A stretch of 61,200 nucleotides of DNA from Chloroflexota bacterium (GCA_021814145.1 JAKAIY010000003.1:1-61200), one strand, 5' to 3'; shown: positions 28,293 to 37,116, counted from the stretch's first letter. Numbers and translations are program-made. Notes: generated by a model not told the origin, from the sequence alone.

Positions 28293-28348
28293 GAGCGGCG
28301 CGTGATACACCGGAAGCCCTATACTCCCTGATGTATCACGCGCCGCTC
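28293..28348 (-). terminator. Hairpin or terminator downstream of the aldehyde dehydrogenase gene
   Basis: Perfect 17-bp inverted repeat GAGCGGCGCGTGATACA / TGTATCACGCGCCGCTC, followed on the minus strand by ATTGTTT. Confidence 0.6.
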
Positions 28349-28383: not shown

Positions 28384-29877
28384 CTAGCGCAGGCTGATCC
28401 AGGCGGTCTTGACCTGCGTATAGGCGTCGAGGACGGCGTGGCCCATCTCACGGCCATAGCCGCTCTGGCGGTAGCCGCCGAACGGCGCGGCGGCGTCAAA
28501 CTGGTTGTAGGTGTTGACCCAGATCACGCCGGATTTCAGCAGCGCTACCAGCTTGTGCGCCTTCTTGACGTCGGCTGTCCAGACGCCCGCCGCCAGGCCG
28601 TAGATGGACTGGTTGGCGCGCGCGGCCACCTCCTCGATCTCCTCGAAAGGCATCGCCACCACGACTGGCCCGAAGATTTCCTCGCGGGCGACGGTCATCT
28701 CGTCGCGCACCTGGTCGAGAATCGTCGGGCGCAGGAAGTAGCCACTGGCCAGGTCGCCGCCGAGCCGCTCACCGCCCGCGCGCGTAATGGCGCCCTCGCG
28801 CTGACCGCTCTCGATGTAGCCAGCCACGCGGTCCAGCTGCTCCTGCGAGATGATCGGCCCGACCTCGGTCGCTGGGTCCACGCCCGCGCCTACCCGCATC
28901 GCGTCAGCCGCTTTCGCCAGCTGCTCCATGGTCTGGTCGTAGATGTCGCGGTGGACAAAGAGGCGGCTGCCCGCCGTGCAGATCTGGCCGGAGTTAAAGT
29001 AGATAGCGGTCAGCGCGCCGCGCACCGCCCACTTCAGGTCGGCGTCGGGGAAGATGATGTTGGGTGATTTGCCGCCGAGCTCCAGCGTGACCTTCTTCAG
29101 GTTGCCCGCGCTGGCCATGAGCACCTTTTTGCCGACCTCGGTCGAGCCGGTGAAGGCGATCTTGTCCACATCGAGATGCTCCGCCAGCGCCGCGCCCGCC
29201 GTATGGCCGTAGCCCGGAACGATGTTCACCACGCCATCCGGGAAGCCCGCTTCGCAGATCAGCTCGCCCAGGCGCAGCGCCGTCAGCGGCGTCTGCTCGG
29301 CGGGCTTGAGGATAACGGTGTTGCCAGCGGCCAGCGCGGGCGCCAGCTTCCACGAAGCCATCTGCATCGGGAAGTTCCACGGGATGATCTGGCCAACGAC
29401 GCCCAGCGGCTCGCGCAGGGTATAGGTGAACATGTTGGGGATGGAGACCGGAACCGTCTCGCCCTCGATCTTCGTCGCCCAGCCCGCGAAATAACGGAAA
29501 TGGTCCGCCGTCAGCGGCACATCGCTGCCCTTGGAATAGCGGATCGGCTTGCCGTTGTCGAGCGTCTCCAGCATCGCCAGCTCGTCGGCGTGCTCCTCGA
29601 TCAGCTCGGCGACGCGCCAGAGCAGCCGGCCGCGCTGCGAGGGCGTCATCTTCGCCCACGGGCCGCTCTCGAAGGCCGCGCGCGCCGCCTTGACCGCGCG
29701 ATCAATGTCCTCCCTGTCGCCCTCGGCCACCCGCGCCAGGACCTCGCCTGTCGCGGGGTTGAGCGTCTCGAAGGTCTTGCCGCTGGCCGCATCCACCCAT
29801 TGGCCGCCGATGAGCATGCGCACCGGCTGCCGCTGGAGAAACGCGCTCACCACAGTCTCACTTGCGCTGGTCGTCAT
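28384..29877 (-). CDS. NAD-dependent aldehyde dehydrogenase (possibly phenylacetaldehyde-type)
   Basis: IIPWNFP, FTGSTEVG, LELGGKSP, NSGQICTAG (catalytic Cys), EEIFGPV. Substrate inferred from context only. Confidence 0.93.
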   Translation of the reverse strand: MTTSASETVVSAFLQRQPVRMLIGGQWVDAASGKTFETLNPATGEVLARVAEGDREDIDRAVKAARAAFESGPWAKMTPSQRGRLLWRVAELIEEHADELAMLETLDNGKPIRYSKGSDVPLTADHFRYFAGWATKIEGETVPVSIPNMFTYTLREPLGVVGQIIPWNFPMQMASWKLAPALAAGNTVILKPAEQTPLTALRLGELICEAGFPDGVVNIVPGYGHTAGAALAEHLDVDKIAFTGSTEVGKKVLMASAGNLKKVTLELGGKSPNIIFPDADLKWAVRGALTAIYFNSGQICTAGSRLFVHRDIYDQTMEQLAKAADAMRVGAGVDPATEVGPIISQEQLDRVAGYIESGQREGAITRAGGERLGGDLASGYFLRPTILDQVRDEMTVAREEIFGPVVVAMPFEEIEEVAARANQSIYGLAAGVWTADVKKAHKLVALLKSGVIWVNTYNQFDAAAPFGGYRQSGYGREMGHAVLDAYTQVKTAWISLR

Positions 29878-31003: not shown

Positions 31004-31951
31004 GTGAACGCGCCGTTGTTGACTGATGCCGCCGTCCTCCAGCGCATCCAGGAACACAAGCTGATCGAGAATCTCGACCACATGAGCGCGACATATCTGG
31101 AGGGCATCAAGCGCATCCTGACCGTCTCCGCTGATACGGAGTACGTCTCCGCGCCGGCTTACATGCACGCCGCGCGCTTCGCCCCCAACATCAACTCCTT
31201 TGGCTCCGCGATCGCCATCGTGCAGGATGAGCTGGGGCATGCGCACATCGCTTACCGCCTGCTGCGCGACCTTGGCGTGGATACCGAGGAGCTGATCTAT
31301 AGCCGCGACCCGCTGAAGTGGAAGTATCCTTACGCCTTTGATGTGCCGCTGGACAGCTTCTATGAGCTGATTGTCGCTAACGCCTTCTATGACCGCGCCG
31401 GCTATACCCTGCTCGGTGACGTCTACAGTAGCACGACGTTCGGCCCCTGGAAGCGCGCGCTGACCAAGGTGGACAAGGAGGAGACCTTCCATCTGCGCCA
31501 CGGCGAGCAGTGGATGCGCAAGCTGGCCCCCGACCCCGCCGAGCACGAGCGCCTGCAAGCGGCGATTGACTGGATGTTCCTGCTGACGGTTGAGTGGTTC
31601 GGGCTGCCTGATAACCTCAAGAAGCACACCGAGCAACTGGGCTTTGGCTTTAAAGGCAAGAGTAACGACGAGCTGCGCCAGACATGGATGAGCACCGCGG
31701 CGCCGCTCTGCCAGGAGCTGGGCTTCACCATCCCCGTACACTACGACGATGGCGCCGGGAAATGGGTGATTGACTGCGCGTTCCCGGCGGCCTTCGACGC
31801 CCAGCGCAAGCGCTGGCTGCTTGAGGATGGCGCGATCAGCTGGGATGACGTCATGGTCCGCTGGAAGCGCCGGGGCCCCAAGAACGACGAGTTCGTTGAG
31901 CGCATGCAGCGCGGCCATCGTGAGCTTGCCCGGCTGATGGGAGTCGCCTGA
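31004..31951 (+). CDS. paaA: PaaA-like diiron aryl-CoA epoxidase catalytic subunit
   Basis: Ferritin-like ligand motifs ADTE, QDELGH, YDRAG, KEETFH; LQAAIDWMF; KSNDELRQ. Confidence 0.75.
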   Translation: MNAPLLTDAAVLQRIQEHKLIENLDHMSATYLEGIKRILTVSADTEYVSAPAYMHAARFAPNINSFGSAIAIVQDELGHAHIAYRLLRDLGVDTEELIYSRDPLKWKYPYAFDVPLDSFYELIVANAFYDRAGYTLLGDVYSSTTFGPWKRALTKVDKEETFHLRHGEQWMRKLAPDPAEHERLQAAIDWMFLLTVEWFGLPDNLKKHTEQLGFGFKGKSNDELRQTWMSTAAPLCQELGFTIPVHYDDGAGKWVIDCAFPAAFDAQRKRWLLEDGAISWDDVMVRWKRRGPKNDEFVERMQRGHRELARLMGVA

Positions 31952-32304
31952 TGTACGCCACACCCGCTTCCGGCGCGCTTTCCAGTGGCGCCGATTACCC
32001 ACACGATCCGCTCTGGGACGCACTGCGCGACGTGCCTGACCCGGAGCTGGGCGTCTCGCTCGTGGATATGGGCATGATCGTGGAGGCGCTGCGCGAAGGC
32101 CCTCATGCGACCGTGCGCCTGACCTACACGGCGATGGGCTGCCCCGGCGCCGAGATGATCGAGAGTGATGTGCGCGAGCGGCTGCTGCGCGTGCCGGGCG
32201 TTGAGACGGTGGAGATCGAGGTGGTCTGGGATCCCGTCTGGACGACGGCGCGCCTGACCGGCGATGGTCGTGACGCGCTCTTGCTGTTGGGGGTGGCGTT
32301 ATGA
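31951..32304 (+). CDS. paaD: DUF59 / PaaD N-terminal metal-sulfur cluster assembly factor
   Basis: VPDPELGVSLVDMG, TAMGCP, WDPVWT. Confidence 0.8.
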   Translation: MYATPASGALSSGADYPHDPLWDALRDVPDPELGVSLVDMGMIVEALREGPHATVRLTYTAMGCPGAEMIESDVRERLLRVPGVETVEIEVVWDPVWTTARLTGDGRDALLLLGVAL

Positions 32305-32582
32305 GCTATTTCGGTGACTCCAGCGCGCTCGATGAGTCCGCGAAAGCCCCCGAAGCTGCTGTGGAAGGGCAGGCGGCGCGGCGCCTCCATCTCATCGCTG
32401 AACGCGTCTGGATAGTGCTCGCGCGCCGGGGCTACGAGGAGCCACTGCGCCAGGTGGGCACAGTCGAGGCGGACGACGCGGAGCTGGCGCGTGTCTACGC
32501 CCGCAGCATCTACGACGAGTTCGCCTGGGTCGAGATGGTGGTTGTCCCGCGCGACGCGGCGCTCACCGTCATCGCCTCGTAA
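32301..32582 (+). CDS. paaB: PaaB-like small subunit
   Basis: PLRQVGTVEADDAELARVYARSIY...MVVVPR resembles the PaaB motif HVGSVHAxDxExA..AR..Y. Confidence 0.65.
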   Translation: MSYFGDSSALDESAKAPEAAVEGQAARRLHLIAERVWIVLARRGYEEPLRQVGTVEADDAELARVYARSIYDEFAWVEMVVVPRDAALTVIAS

Positions 32583-32606
32583 GCGTCTCAAAAGGAGCGA
32601 CCAGCG

Positions 32607-33386
32607 ATGACCAGCAAGACCTTCTCACCCGCCGCGAAAGACGCCCTCTTCTCCCTGATCGCGCGGATGGCGGACAACAAGTACTTCCTGGGGCGCAACT
32701 ACGCTGAGTGGTGCAGCGGCGCGCCAAACCTGGAATCCGCCGTGGCCGCCGCCGCGATGGCCCAGGACGAGCTCGGCCACGCCCGCGCCCTCTATCCCTT
32801 GCTCAAGACACTCGCGCCCCTCGCCGGACCGGAGATTGAGCCGGAGACCCGCACCGAATTCCTGCGTCTGTCACTGCTTGACCAGCCGTTTGATAGCTGG
32901 GTTAGCCTCGTCGCGGCGAATTTCCTGACTGATAACGCCCTTACCGTTATCTTCGAGGCCGCCCAGACTTCCACCTATGAGCCGCTCGCGGGCCGCAGCC
33001 GCAAGGCGCTCCAGGAGGAGCAGCTGCACGCCATCCACGGAGACGCCTGGGTGCGCCAGCTCGCCCGGGATGGCGCCACGCTCCGCGAAGCGTGCGAGGC
33101 CGCCTTGCGCGCCAACTGGGATGAGACGCTCCTCTGGTTCGGCCCCACCGGCGCGCCAGACCCGCTCTCCGACGAAGGCATCCTCGACGCGGACCCCGAT
33201 TCGCTGCGCGCGCGCTTCCTGGCGAGAGTCGGGCCGCGAATTACCGCCGAGCGTCTCGATCTCCCCGTGAGCGCCGTCGGGACGGAGTTCGAGCTGACCG
33301 CCCCACTGCCGTGGGAGCGCTGGGACGGCGCCAGCTACCGTCTGCGGCCCGCCGCCGCTACGGCGAAAAAGGCGGCCCGGCGATGA
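32607..33386 (+). CDS. paaC: PaaC-like structural subunit
   Basis: MADNKYFLG..YAEWCSGAPNLE...AQDELGHAR; KALQEEQLH. Confidence 0.8.
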   Translation: MTSKTFSPAAKDALFSLIARMADNKYFLGRNYAEWCSGAPNLESAVAAAAMAQDELGHARALYPLLKTLAPLAGPEIEPETRTEFLRLSLLDQPFDSWVSLVAANFLTDNALTVIFEAAQTSTYEPLAGRSRKALQEEQLHAIHGDAWVRQLARDGATLREACEAALRANWDETLLWFGPTGAPDPLSDEGILDADPDSLRARFLARVGPRITAERLDLPVSAVGTEFELTAPLPWERWDGASYRLRPAAATAKKAARR

Positions 33387-34765: not shown

Positions 34766-35587
34766 TTATTCCACATCGCCCCAGGTGACGGTGAGCAGCT
34801 GCCCGTCATCGAGCCGCAGGAGCAGCGCGCCGTCGCTGTTGACATCCACCGCGAAACCTTCCAGCGCATCAGTCCGCTGGGGCGTCTGGTGGATAGTCGC
34901 GCGGCGCCCGAGGGTGATGAGCCGCGCGCGCCAGCGGTCGCGCACAGCGTTCTGGGCGGCGGGTCCGCCGGTTGAGAGCTGGCGGTAGAGGTCATCGAGG
35001 CGGCTGATTAGCGCGATGGCCAGCGGCTCGCGCGGGATGGGAGCGCCCGCCTCAGCGGCTAGCGTTGTGGCGCGGGCGGCAAGCTCAGGGTCACTCGCGA
35101 GAGAGCCATTGACATTGAGGCCCATGCCCACGACGGCGGCTCCGTCGCCGGTCTCGATGAGAATGCCGCAGACCTTGCGCCCGTTGATCAGGACATCATT
35201 GGGCCACTTGATTCCCACGCGCAGGGGGGTAGTGGCCTCGATGGCTTCGGTAACGGCAAGCGCGCTGGCCATCATCAGATAGTGCGCCGGGAAGGTGGGG
35301 CGCAGAAGCAGCGAGAGGATCAGTTGCTGATTGGGCAGCGGCTTCCAGACGCGGCCAATCCGCCCGCGCCCCGCCGTCTGGTGGTCGGTAACGACAAGCG
35401 CGCCCTCAGCGGCTCCGGCGCGCGCCAGGGCGCTGGCGTAGGTGTTAGTGGAGTCCACGGCAGGGAAGTAGATGAGCGGGTTACCAAGGGCGAGACCGCT
35501 CAGCCCGTGGCGCAGCTCATCTACGCGGAGCGGGGCGTCATCGCTGGCGCCGGCAGCGCCCGCGTTGGGTGGATCGGGCCGGGACAT
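34766..35587 (-). CDS. birA: Biotin--[acetyl-CoA carboxylase] ligase without HTH (class I)
   Basis: DSTN, QTAGRGRIGRVW, KWPNDV, KVCGIL, GMGLN; no N-terminal winged HTH. Confidence 0.93.
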   Translation of the reverse strand: MSRPDPPNAGAAGASDDAPLRVDELRHGLSGLALGNPLIYFPAVDSTNTYASALARAGAAEGALVVTDHQTAGRGRIGRVWKPLPNQQLILSLLLRPTFPAHYLMMASALAVTEAIEATTPLRVGIKWPNDVLINGRKVCGILIETGDGAAVVGMGLNVNGSLASDPELAARATTLAAEAGAPIPREPLAIALISRLDDLYRQLSTGGPAAQNAVRDRWRARLITLGRRATIHQTPQRTDALEGFAVDVNSDGALLLRLDDGQLLTVTWGDVE

Positions 35588-35630
35588 GTGGAGCCTCCAC
35601 GCGGGGATAGGAGTGAGACAGCTCAGGATG

Positions 35631-35659
35631 AAAAAAAGCCGGGGCGATAGCCACCCGGC
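35631..35659 (-). terminator. Intrinsic terminator upstream of birA
   Basis: Minus strand GCCGGGTGGC-tatc-GCCCCGGC followed by T7. Confidence 0.85.
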
Positions 35660-35788
35660 CATCACCCCGGTCGAACCGCGCGGGCGGGATACTCTCCCAC
35701 CAAAGCGAGCGGTTAATCCGCACCCGGCGCAAGCGCCGGTCGAGGATGTGGGATACTTGCGACGCCTCCACGAAAGGAGGTGATGTCA

Positions 35789-35863
35789 CTAGCGGACCCG
35801 CTCCCTCGGAGAATCGGTGCGGAGAGCAGTCAAACCGCCTGCGCGGCTGGAACATTCACTCAC
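35789..35863 (-). CDS. Candidate 24-aa peptide MSECSSRAGGLTALRTDSPRERVR
   Basis: AAAGGAGGTGAT SD 5 nt before GTG; ends in tandem TAG TGA. Confidence 0.45.
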   Translation of the reverse strand: MSECSSRAGGLTALRTDSPRERVR

Positions 35864-35891
35864 TGCACATCACCTCCTTTCGTTGGCTAGG

Positions 35892-35921
35892 ATGATAGCA
35901 CGCGACGCAAAGGCGCGTCAA
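35892..35921 (-). promoter_or_regulatory. Sigma70 promoter with extended -10
   Basis: Minus strand TTGACG-N18-TATCAT with TGn (TGCTATCAT). Confidence 0.7.
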
Positions 35922-36173
35922 GCGGCGCGAGCGATTGACCCAGGGGCGGCGTCAACGCCAGGTGGGCGCGGCGGCTGGCGGCTAAACCCGCGCCTCAAGG
36001 GCCACACAGCCCGCAGGCCTGCCTTCATGGACCGCATTTTGCGAGTGATGGGGCGCCAGGGCATATAAATTTGGGGGCAAACAGGCGCGCCAATAAGGAA
36101 ATCGTCCGGCTCCTGATACGATGCGACGCCTCACTGACCATCCCAGCTTCTTCGCGCGGTTTGGAAACGCCTG

Positions 36174-36215
36174 TTGACAAACTAATGACAATAGTTTATA
36201 ACTACTGATGTTAGT
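36174..36215 (+). promoter_or_regulatory. Promoter overlapped by two tandem operators for the downstream TetR
   Basis: TTGACA-N17-TATAAC; palindromes AAACTA-N7-TAGTTT (36179-36197) and ACTA-N7-TAGT (36201-36215). Confidence 0.75.
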
Positions 36216-36246
36216 AATGAGCGCGAGAGCGCGGCAGGAGGAGACA

Positions 36247-37116
36247 ATGGTGGAAACGCGGTATCTGACGCTCCCAGAGGGACGCGTCGCGTACGATGAC
36301 CAGGGGGCCGGGCCGGTTGTGATCTGCATGCCAGGAATTGGCGACATACGGGCGGAATATCGCCTGCTCACGCCACAGCTGCTCGCGGCGGGCTTCCGGG
36401 TCGTGACGATGGACCCACGCGGGCAGGGGGAGACCAGCGCCCGCTGGCCCGACTATTCCGTCGCGGCGATCGCGGGGGACGCGCTGGCGCTGGCGCGTGA
36501 GCTGCGCGCGGGTCCAGTGTATCTGATAGGGAATTCACGCGCGGGCGGCGTGGCGGCGTGGGCCGCCGCCGAGGCCCCGGAGCTGGTGGCGGGCGTCGTG
36601 ATGATCGCGCCTTTCGCGCGCGACAGCGCCACGCCGCGCTGGCAGGCGCGCCTGCTCCATCTGGGCATGTACACGCCACTCTTCAGCGGGCCGTGGGGGC
36701 CAGTGGTGTGGCGGCGCTACATGGCGACGCTTTATCCAACCGGCAAGCCAGACGATCTCGCGCCTTATCTGGCGCGCGTCGAGGCGACCATGCGCGAGCC
36801 GGGACGCATGCGCGCGCTGCTGGCGATATTCGCGCCCGCGGAAGTCTCGTATAATGAGCGCTTGAGCCGTGTAACCGCGCCCTCGCTTATTATCTTCGGG
36901 ACGAATGACCGGGACTTCGCTGAGCCAGAGACGGAGGCGCGCGCACTGGCCAGCGCGCTGGGTGGGCCTACGCGCGTAGAGTTGATCGCAGGCGCTGGCC
37001 ACTATCCACACGCTGAGATGGCTGAGCGAACAGGGGCGCTGATTACCGCGTTCCTCAAGGAGTTGCGCGATCAGCGGCGCGCGGCGAGCGCGACGGAGGT
37101 GGCGTATGGCGCTTGA
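36247..37116 (+). CDS. Alpha/beta fold hydrolase
   Basis: MPGIGD, DPRGQGET, GNSRAG nucleophile elbow, GAGHYPH. Confidence 0.9.
   Translation: MVETRYLTLPEGRVAYDDQGAGPVVICMPGIGDIRAEYRLLTPQLLAAGFRVVTMDPRGQGETSARWPDYSVAAIAGDALALARELRAGPVYLIGNSRAGGVAAWAAAEAPELVAGVVMIAPFARDSATPRWQARLLHLGMYTPLFSGPWGPVVWRRYMATLYPTGKPDDLAPYLARVEATMREPGRMRALLAIFAPAEVSYNERLSRVTAPSLIIFGTNDRDFAEPETEARALASALGGPTRVELIAGAGHYPHAEMAERTGALITAFLKELRDQRRAASATEVAYGA

Follow-up and report, generated by a model that had tools for sequence, protein, structure and literature searches.

In type I toxin mRNAs of the hok, tisB and aapA1 type, long-range anti-Shine–Dalgarno (anti-SD) pairing silences a small frame, and co-transcriptional folding matters. 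Leader-peptide attenuators of the trp, his and ermC type place a short frame with an irrelevant product, overlapping helices and a terminator before a gene. [quoted passage not shown] For the B. subtilis hbs mRNA, stability is outlined as being coupled to initiating ribosomes and to an interaction between the 5′ and 3′ UTRs (PMC5737220). Here we describe an RNA element of the Chloroflexota that resembles each of these in part, found in a 61,200-nt stretch of DNA from a Chloroflexota bacterium (GCA_021814145.1 JAKAIY010000003.1:1-61200, hereafter the window). Like STAB-SD, the element has an SD complementary to the 16S 3′ end near its predicted 5′ end, in a genome that encodes RNase J (618 bits, cut-off 400); unlike STAB-SD, whose SD does not direct translation, it has a start codon 9 nt further on, a frame of fixed length and an internal anti-SD that competes for the SD. 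The short frame, the overlapping helices and the terminator before a gene are shared with leader-peptide attenuators, from which it differs in having neither antiterminator nor codon runs, in a stop codon far from the terminator and in persisting without a co-oriented downstream gene. Anti-SD pairing over a small frame and predicted co-transcriptional folding recall the type I toxin mRNAs; however, its peptide is hydrophilic and not conserved, and the element is single-copy and adjoins housekeeping genes. SD sequestration, regulatory frames and 5′ stabilisers are already known; what is new is that they occur combined, across this range of taxa, in an element missing from Rfam and from the literature searched.

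Table 1 Features of the element in the window; numbering follows the window and all features lie on the minus strand.
Feature	Position	Strand	Remark
Conserved motif at predicted RNA 5′ end, GAAAGGAGG			
−35 hexamer TTGACG	35921-35916	minus	read from sequence
Extended −10 TGcTATCAT	35900-35892	minus	18-nt spacer from −35; predicted start ~35884
5′ arm ACGAAAGGAGGTGATGT	35883-35867	minus	inverted-repeat search
13-nt SD GAAAGGAGGUGAU	35881-35869	minus	inside 5′ arm; core GGAGG 35877-35873, then spacer
24-codon ORF MSECSSRAGGLTALRTDSPRERVR + TAG	35863-35789	minus	GTG start at 35863
TGA right after the TAG of the ORF	35788-35786	minus	TAG TGA together 35791-35786
P1 5′ strand GCCGCGCAGGCGG	35847-35835	minus	ORF nt +17 to +29, codons 6-10
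In-ORF anti-SD GCACC-GA-UUCUCC	35820-35808	minus	codons 15-19; partners are GGAGG and GUGC of the 5′ end
17-nt 3′ arm ACATCACCTCCTTTCGT	35786-35770	minus	exact complement of 5′ arm
SD-mimic GGAGGCGUCGC	35769-35759	minus	local hairpin partner of 17-nt anti-SD arm
P3 domain, UCCCAC/GUGGGA around CCGGCGC-uu-GCGCCGG and GCGG-auuaa-CCGC	35753-35695	minus	
P1 3′ strand CCGCCCGCGCGG	35687-35676	minus	
Intrinsic terminator	35670-35631	minus	14-bp stem 35670-35639, U7 35637-35631
birA	35587-34766	minus	group I biotin-protein ligase; ATG at 35587, U-tract 43 nt before

The promoter, the SD at the 5′ end, the GTG-started 24-aa ORF, the TAG TGA, the exact 17-nt complement and the P3 hairpins named in the first-pass annotation can all be read at 35921-35631 (Table 1). 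The U7 terminator that it placed before birA is present too, at 43 rather than 44 nt, a gap too short to hold a separate birA promoter. The −10 ends 8 nt from the 5′ arm, which puts the predicted transcript start within ~2 nt of that arm. The inverted-repeat search found the two 17-nt arms to be 100% complementary and 80 nt apart, and the 255-nt unit as a whole folds better than 200/200 shuffles (z = −5.28). The 61.2-kb window has just one further perfect 17-nt inverted repeat within 150 nt, at 28293-28348 (GAGCGGCGCGTGATACA / TGTATCACGCGCCGCTC, 22-nt loop); it lies just 3′ of the stop of a minus-strand aldehyde-dehydrogenase-like ORF (28384-29877) and is therefore probably a terminator. Four relatives provided the 16S tail, GGATCACCTCCTTTCT, to which the 13-nt SD is complementary; the window's own assembly gave 0 matches for a 16S 3′ end. 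The earlier match of AUCACCUCCUUUC to the 3′ end of 16S rRNA is borne out, as it equals the tail of these four relatives, and 13 nt of the 17-nt anti-SD arm are identical to that tail. As had been said of this BirA (273 aa), it lacks the repressor HTH: PF03099 and PF02237 (ligase and BPL_C) are its only matches.

At gathering scores, Rfam 15 returned two tRNAs in the whole window and nothing at the element. In E-value mode, the best matches within 35300-36300 were asX1 (26.8 against 70 bits) and CC2171 (18.7 against 75 bits), with none at threshold. The likeness to the latter (RF01867, a Caulobacter sRNA) consists of the first 20 positions of the model (…GAAAGGAGGUGA) and the terminator, which align to the window unit; the score, however, is far below the gathering score and the middle of the model is unaligned, and the window unit is not a member. 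The literature searched on Ktedonobacteria and Chloroflexi RNAs, birA RNA motifs, leader peptides, anti-SD sequences and STAB-SD/RNase J does not describe the element. The main text of PMC5737381 contains no birA, smpB, Ktedonobacter, Chloroflex or uORF, and its supplements could list motifs by gene. The description of the element as undescribed thus holds for what was searched.

By BLAST the unit is present in 25 of 41 related genomes, and it is the 5′ end that is best kept, not the anti-SD arm. The pattern AAGGAGGTGNTGTN{4,5}TGAGTGAA, run on one genome per prokaryotic species, gave 50 loci, titled mostly Ktedonobacterales or Ktedonobacteria, with some 'uncultured Chloroflexia' and one Limnocylindrales. 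We retained 43 of the 50 as the family, and the rows of L020 and L056, truncated by contig ends, were dropped; the seven set aside as presumed chance matches have frames of 29-50 or more codons and are titled non-Chloroflexota (L021, L038, L040, L048, L049, L067) or Dehalococcoidia (L059). One locus titled 'Proteobacteria bacterium' (L037) holds a complete Ktedonobacteria-type element, so its bin label is probably wrong. A covariance model (R1; 19 sequences, 153 positions) matches 133 of 151 Ktedonobacteria genomes, mostly once per genome, and among these 30 of 31 high-quality genomes and 54 of 56 genera. Matches extend to other Chloroflexota families (f5 5/6, f12 10/10, f16 3/5, and others). 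A search of 401 Chloroflexota genomes for the 15-mer GAAAGGAGGTGRTGT with N3-5 and TG behind it turned up 101 that have it, against 0 for the reversed control; the motif is absent from the large families f8 (0/17), f9 (0/24), f14 (0/25) and f21 (0/25). Unpublished genomes enter the R1 class count (G077, G084, G142) and both the R1 other-family count and the 15-mer count (G187), and no conclusion depends on them. The element is single-copy in the window's genome, and the 15-mer motif has one copy in 100 of the 101 genomes and two in the remaining one. Four genomes (G052, G118, G129, G144) have two R1 matches, on different contigs or far apart on one; second copies of the element do exist. The window unit hence belongs to an RNA family, absent from Rfam and typically single-copy, that is spread over Ktedonobacteria and a number of further Chloroflexota lineages, and it forms a predicted transcription unit by itself. 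An RNA family that is near-universal in a bacterial class, was kept since before the class split and is absent from Rfam is rare.

The anatomy shared within the family was tallied on 87 unique elements, 85 of Ktedonobacteria type and two of Limnocylindrales type. A strict promoter (TTGACN, 17/18-nt spacer, TGnTAnnnT) precedes 59 of them and looser −35/−10 elements precede 25 more. In the 59, the −10 ends 13-14 nt before GGAGG, which places the SD at the extreme 5′ end of the predicted RNA. The family SD, GAAAGGAGGUG(A/G)U, has its complement in the 16S tail GGAUCACCUCCUUUCU of the four relatives; the 5′ SD motif is invariant in both the 14-row and the 84-row alignment, and the 13-nt SD is invariant across classes. 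The start codon follows GGAGG by 9 nt in 69/87 and is ATG in 52, GTG in 34 and TTG in 1. Frames have 24 codons in 71 elements, 25 in 9, 26 in 2, 22 in 2, 18 in 1 and 15 in 2, and end in TAG (46), TAA (39) or TGA (2), while the remaining two frames carry stops in 85/87 and 86/87.

A conserved SD, start codon and frame length, the interchange of GTG, ATG and TTG at the start, and the recurrence of Cys7, Gly9, His15 and Thr16 are what an ordinary small-protein gene would show, in which the 24-aa peptide is the product and the RNA structure tunes its synthesis. We nevertheless regard this as very improbable, given how the peptide evolves. When the 71 frames of 24 codons are joined in a minimum spanning tree, codon positions 1/2/3 show 249/238/219 differences, with no surplus at third positions; of 361 codon changes that involve a single base, 93 are synonymous (26%, against 23% expected). 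Judged from sequence alone, the substitutions look neutral at the peptide level, so that the peptide conservation looked for at the outset is not seen. The recurrent residues are those encoded by the helices P1 and clamp described below; where His changes to Cys or Thr to Ile, compensating bases of the 5′ leader change with them, and conservation of the ORF follows in part from RNA pairing. Frames in other classes have 13-31 codons and unrelated sequence, and the 24-aa peptide has no match in Pfam or NCBIfam. A cysteine-sensing leader was considered and rejected, the Cys codons being the GCUGC of P1 and of the stop hairpin.

Two long-range helices tie the frame to the rest of the RNA. The first, P1, pairs ORF nt +17 to +29 with a strand just upstream of the terminator and was found by RNAduplex in 43/43 elements. 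In an alignment fitted to the covariance model (A3, in which 10 of the 103 rows are reverse-strand matches), P1 is 93.5% paired, with changes on both sides in 13 of its 14 pairs, and 0/500 shuffles reach any of these measures; its sequence is wholly different in L024/L033, L032/L034 and L042. The second is an in-frame clamp, in which the SD and spacer, GGAG(GU)GGUGUG, pair with CACACC(GA)UUCC at codons 15-18 at −10 to −19 kcal/mol (RNAduplex; −12.2 kcal/mol in the window). The covariation evidence concerns the spacer part of the clamp, whereas the SD-core part (GGAG with UUCC) rests on RNAduplex and uses different columns in different families. In an ungapped-by-codon alignment of 84 sequences, the 6-bp helix between the spacer and codons 15-16 is 94.8% paired, compared with 24-67.5% for slid partners. 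Three of its six pairs show changes on both sides, in seven cells, a number reached by 0/500 shuffles. Examples are GAUGUG/CACAUC (L137), GAUGCG/UGCAUC (L138), GGUGUA/UACACC (L046) and GGUGC/GCACC (L105), and these compensatory changes alter the peptide. Covariation, proposed earlier as a check on the element, is therefore found in both helices. The clamp crosses P1, making a pseudoknot, a type of structure that lies outside the energy model used.

Sequestration of the SD, proposed for the window from its 17-nt arms, thus stands as a family-wide principle; the conserved anti-SD, however, is the stretch at codons 15-18 that covaries with the spacer between SD and start, not the 17-nt arm. Three features seldom found together meet here: the predicted RNA opens with a maximal SD, its frame keeps a fixed length while the peptide drifts, and a covarying clamp links the ribosome-binding site to the inside of the frame. 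A hairpin also spans the stop codon in the family. The P1 interior differs between families and has one or two hairpins in f12 and f35; the P3 inner hairpin covaries within the window's genus (columns 150-154/159-163), the whole domain being a short hairpin in other genera. An alternative helix that would free the SD in family f3 is invariant and thus unproven. The terminator stem covaries as well. Its probability is 0.82-1.00 in 17/17 elements under ten ribosome-mimic constraint settings, and 0.99-1.00 in the window whichever part of the ORF is forced single-stranded. In these models the terminator appears constitutive, and ribosome mimics do not open it. Neither inspection nor the ribosome-mimic constraints revealed an antiterminator in which the 3′ strand of P1 or the 5′ strand of P2 takes part.

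The 17-nt arm that gives the window its perfect SD/anti-SD duplex is a recent addition to this architecture. Many homologues keep the ORF; the arm is found in the window (L001) and in L002 and L003 only, in the latter two, by reading, with one or two positions that do not match the 5′ end. Other family members have at this site a short hairpin, often with a UUCG loop, and in L004, of the same genus and with birA next, a stretch of ~34 nt is missing. That stretch holds the anti-SD arm and its SD-mimic partner GGAGGCGUCGC, and the 17-nt clamp is the stop-codon hairpin grown by ~34 nt in the window's genome and two sister species. The window's genus has an A.C mismatch in the ancient spacer helix (11 unpaired cells at one pair), for which the new arm may compensate.

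Energies were calculated for the window RNA in both forms. The 17-nt duplex alone is worth −29.0 kcal/mol and the local hairpin −14.0 kcal/mol; the family fold reaches −131.5 kcal/mol (−128.7 with the first 33 nt held free) compared with −130.9 for the fold with the 17-bp clamp. The clamp has a probability of 0.46 in the full RNA, 0.87 without the U-tract and 0.97-0.99 in nascent prefixes of 116-180 nt. By these models the RNA is bistable, with two near-isoenergetic folds, and would close during synthesis unless the SD, or the arm starting right after the stop codon, is held. The earlier idea of a 'translate-once timer' is compatible with these calculations for the window. The proposal that a freed 17-nt arm titrates ribosome-binding sites in trans, on the other hand, cannot describe the function of the family, as the arm is confined to three species.

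Downstream of the element, birA follows on the same strand in 67 of the 87 unique elements and is missing behind 20, two of which have too little downstream sequence; the birA linkage raised earlier therefore holds for most elements and not for all. Among 40 loci sampled from f2-f4, birA is next in 38, and of the other two loci one stops at a contig end. In other lineages the next gene is a biotin ligase (f5), smpB (f12, f35, f45) or greA (f16). In five species (L006-L010), part of the window's genus, the downstream gene is convergent, so some function independent of the downstream gene must exist. Conversely, birA stands directly behind another gene, without the element, in four genomes whose element has no birA next to it (G004, G005, G010, G020). 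With neighbours this variable, the element is a module in its own right, placed in most but not all cases ahead of a housekeeping gene. In two distant elements with no birA behind them (L012 and L042), the next co-oriented ORFs share an N-terminal membrane-like stretch, …LLVGLGILARALTAA…, a sequence likeness that suggests a second recurrent neighbour.

This context bears directly on whether the unit is a classical leader-peptide attenuator of birA, in which the position of the ribosome on the 24-codon leader would select an antiterminator or the U7 terminator. A short ORF with an SD and a terminator, followed 43 nt on by a birA without promoter room, is the expected layout; birA stays behind the element even where BirA proteins are only 36-44% identical among families, and in other classes too the next gene lies close behind. 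Even so, we think an attenuator quite improbable, and the earlier proposal of a translation-sensing birA attenuator is not supported. There is no antiterminator and the stem stays closed under every ribosome-mimic constraint; in the window's genome over 100 nt separate the stop codon from the terminator downstream; regulatory codon runs are absent. Moreover, 20 of the 87 elements lack a birA behind them, five have a convergent gene, birA occurs without the element in the four genomes named above, and smpB or greA takes its place in other classes.

We instead favour, as on balance probable, a reading of the family as a translation-gated, self-sequestering mini-ORF RNA. From a near-consensus promoter the RNA would start a few nucleotides ahead of an SD with maximal complementarity to the 16S 3′ tail. 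Its 5′ bases would be contested between the 30S subunit and the in-frame anti-SD. If a ribosome arrived before transcription had reached the anti-SD, it would translate the frame and melt the clamp and P1; without an early ribosome, the RNA would close on itself. Translating a frame of fixed length would then matter, and the peptide would not. The edge of the 30S footprint lies at about +17, where P1 begins, and initiation hence need not melt P1. In the window and the two sister species the closed state is predicted to win during transcription, which would make for a sharper, essentially one-shot gate, and the 17-nt clamp of these three species may be a gate of this kind being tightened in recent evolution. 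The output is the least certain step: a ribosome or duplex at the 5′ end could shield the RNA from the 5′ exonuclease RNase J, which would set the lifetime of the RNA and of a read-through transcript carrying birA here and smpB or greA in other classes. We place modest confidence in stability or read-through dosing as the purpose. If the gate works as proposed, it is a compact natural device that turns the loading of a ribosome into a particular RNA conformation, of interest for translation-coupled RNA decay, for expression control in the little-studied Chloroflexota and for RNA design.

Some of the same observations could also describe a trans-acting sRNA, whose 5′ SD would hold a 30S subunit as a decoy or sensor, or whose freed anti-SD or loop would pair with mRNAs, translation licensing or erasing that activity. 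The element is a stand-alone gene in some species, pairs a strong predicted promoter with a constitutive terminator, occurs once per genome almost throughout the class, encodes a peptide that evolves neutrally and keeps its 13-nt SD across classes. We still rate a trans-acting sRNA as unlikely: the 17-nt arm is lineage-specific, the interior loops vary between families, and the f35 form, in which the terminal hairpin has no U-tract, resembles a plain 5′ UTR of smpB and is probably just that. Distinctly unlikely, in our view, is a further reading in which the element is a ribosome-gated housekeeping RNA switch of the Chloroflexota that senses free 30S subunits or initiation capacity, by setting the 16S tail against a built-in mimic, and signals in trans or by read-through to the maintenance and rescue genes smpB, greA and birA. 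If true, such a ribosome-sensing RNA would be for ribosomes the counterpart of what 6S RNA is for RNA polymerase.

Fold-back sequestration of the SD is typical of type I toxin mRNAs, a P1-closed multi-stem junction with a terminator resembles a riboswitch, and birA lies downstream. We nonetheless judge it extremely improbable that the element is the mRNA of a type I toxin, a riboswitch for a metabolite such as biotin, or a MITE (mobile repeat). The peptide is unconstrained and, by reading, hydrophilic, as the first-pass annotation remarked in setting it apart from type I toxins. The terminator has no competing structure, and the junction interior, which differs between families and has one hairpin in some, leaves no conserved ligand pocket. 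A MITE is at odds with the single copy, in the window's genome as in nearly all others, and with the absence of flanking repeats, and the downstream genes are unrelated to one another.

Two housekeeping RNAs were also considered and rejected as identities of the element. The 6S RNA model RF00013 gave nothing in five Ktedonobacteria genomes (G000, G019, G136, G040, G042; four of them single-contig), a result to be weighed against a control that gives a signal in no more than 5 of 14 known genomes. The fold is also unsuitable: a 6S rod would require pairing between the two ends of the RNA, and the 5′ and 3′ ends of the element are not paired. SRP RNA is located elsewhere in 5/5 genomes. Elsewhere in the window, two plus-strand ORFs at 31004-33386 look like subunits of a phenylacetyl-CoA oxygenase-type di-iron enzyme. 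The one metatranscriptome of the same study (X21) gave 0 contigs for the window, a result with no bearing on expression. The window occurs in two DNA runs (X1 and X2) that may be the source of its assembly; there, short additional contigs cover only 35860-35886, the conserved 5′ motif, at a depth of 41-55 compared with ~8 around it, which fits several related organisms in the sample sharing these bases.
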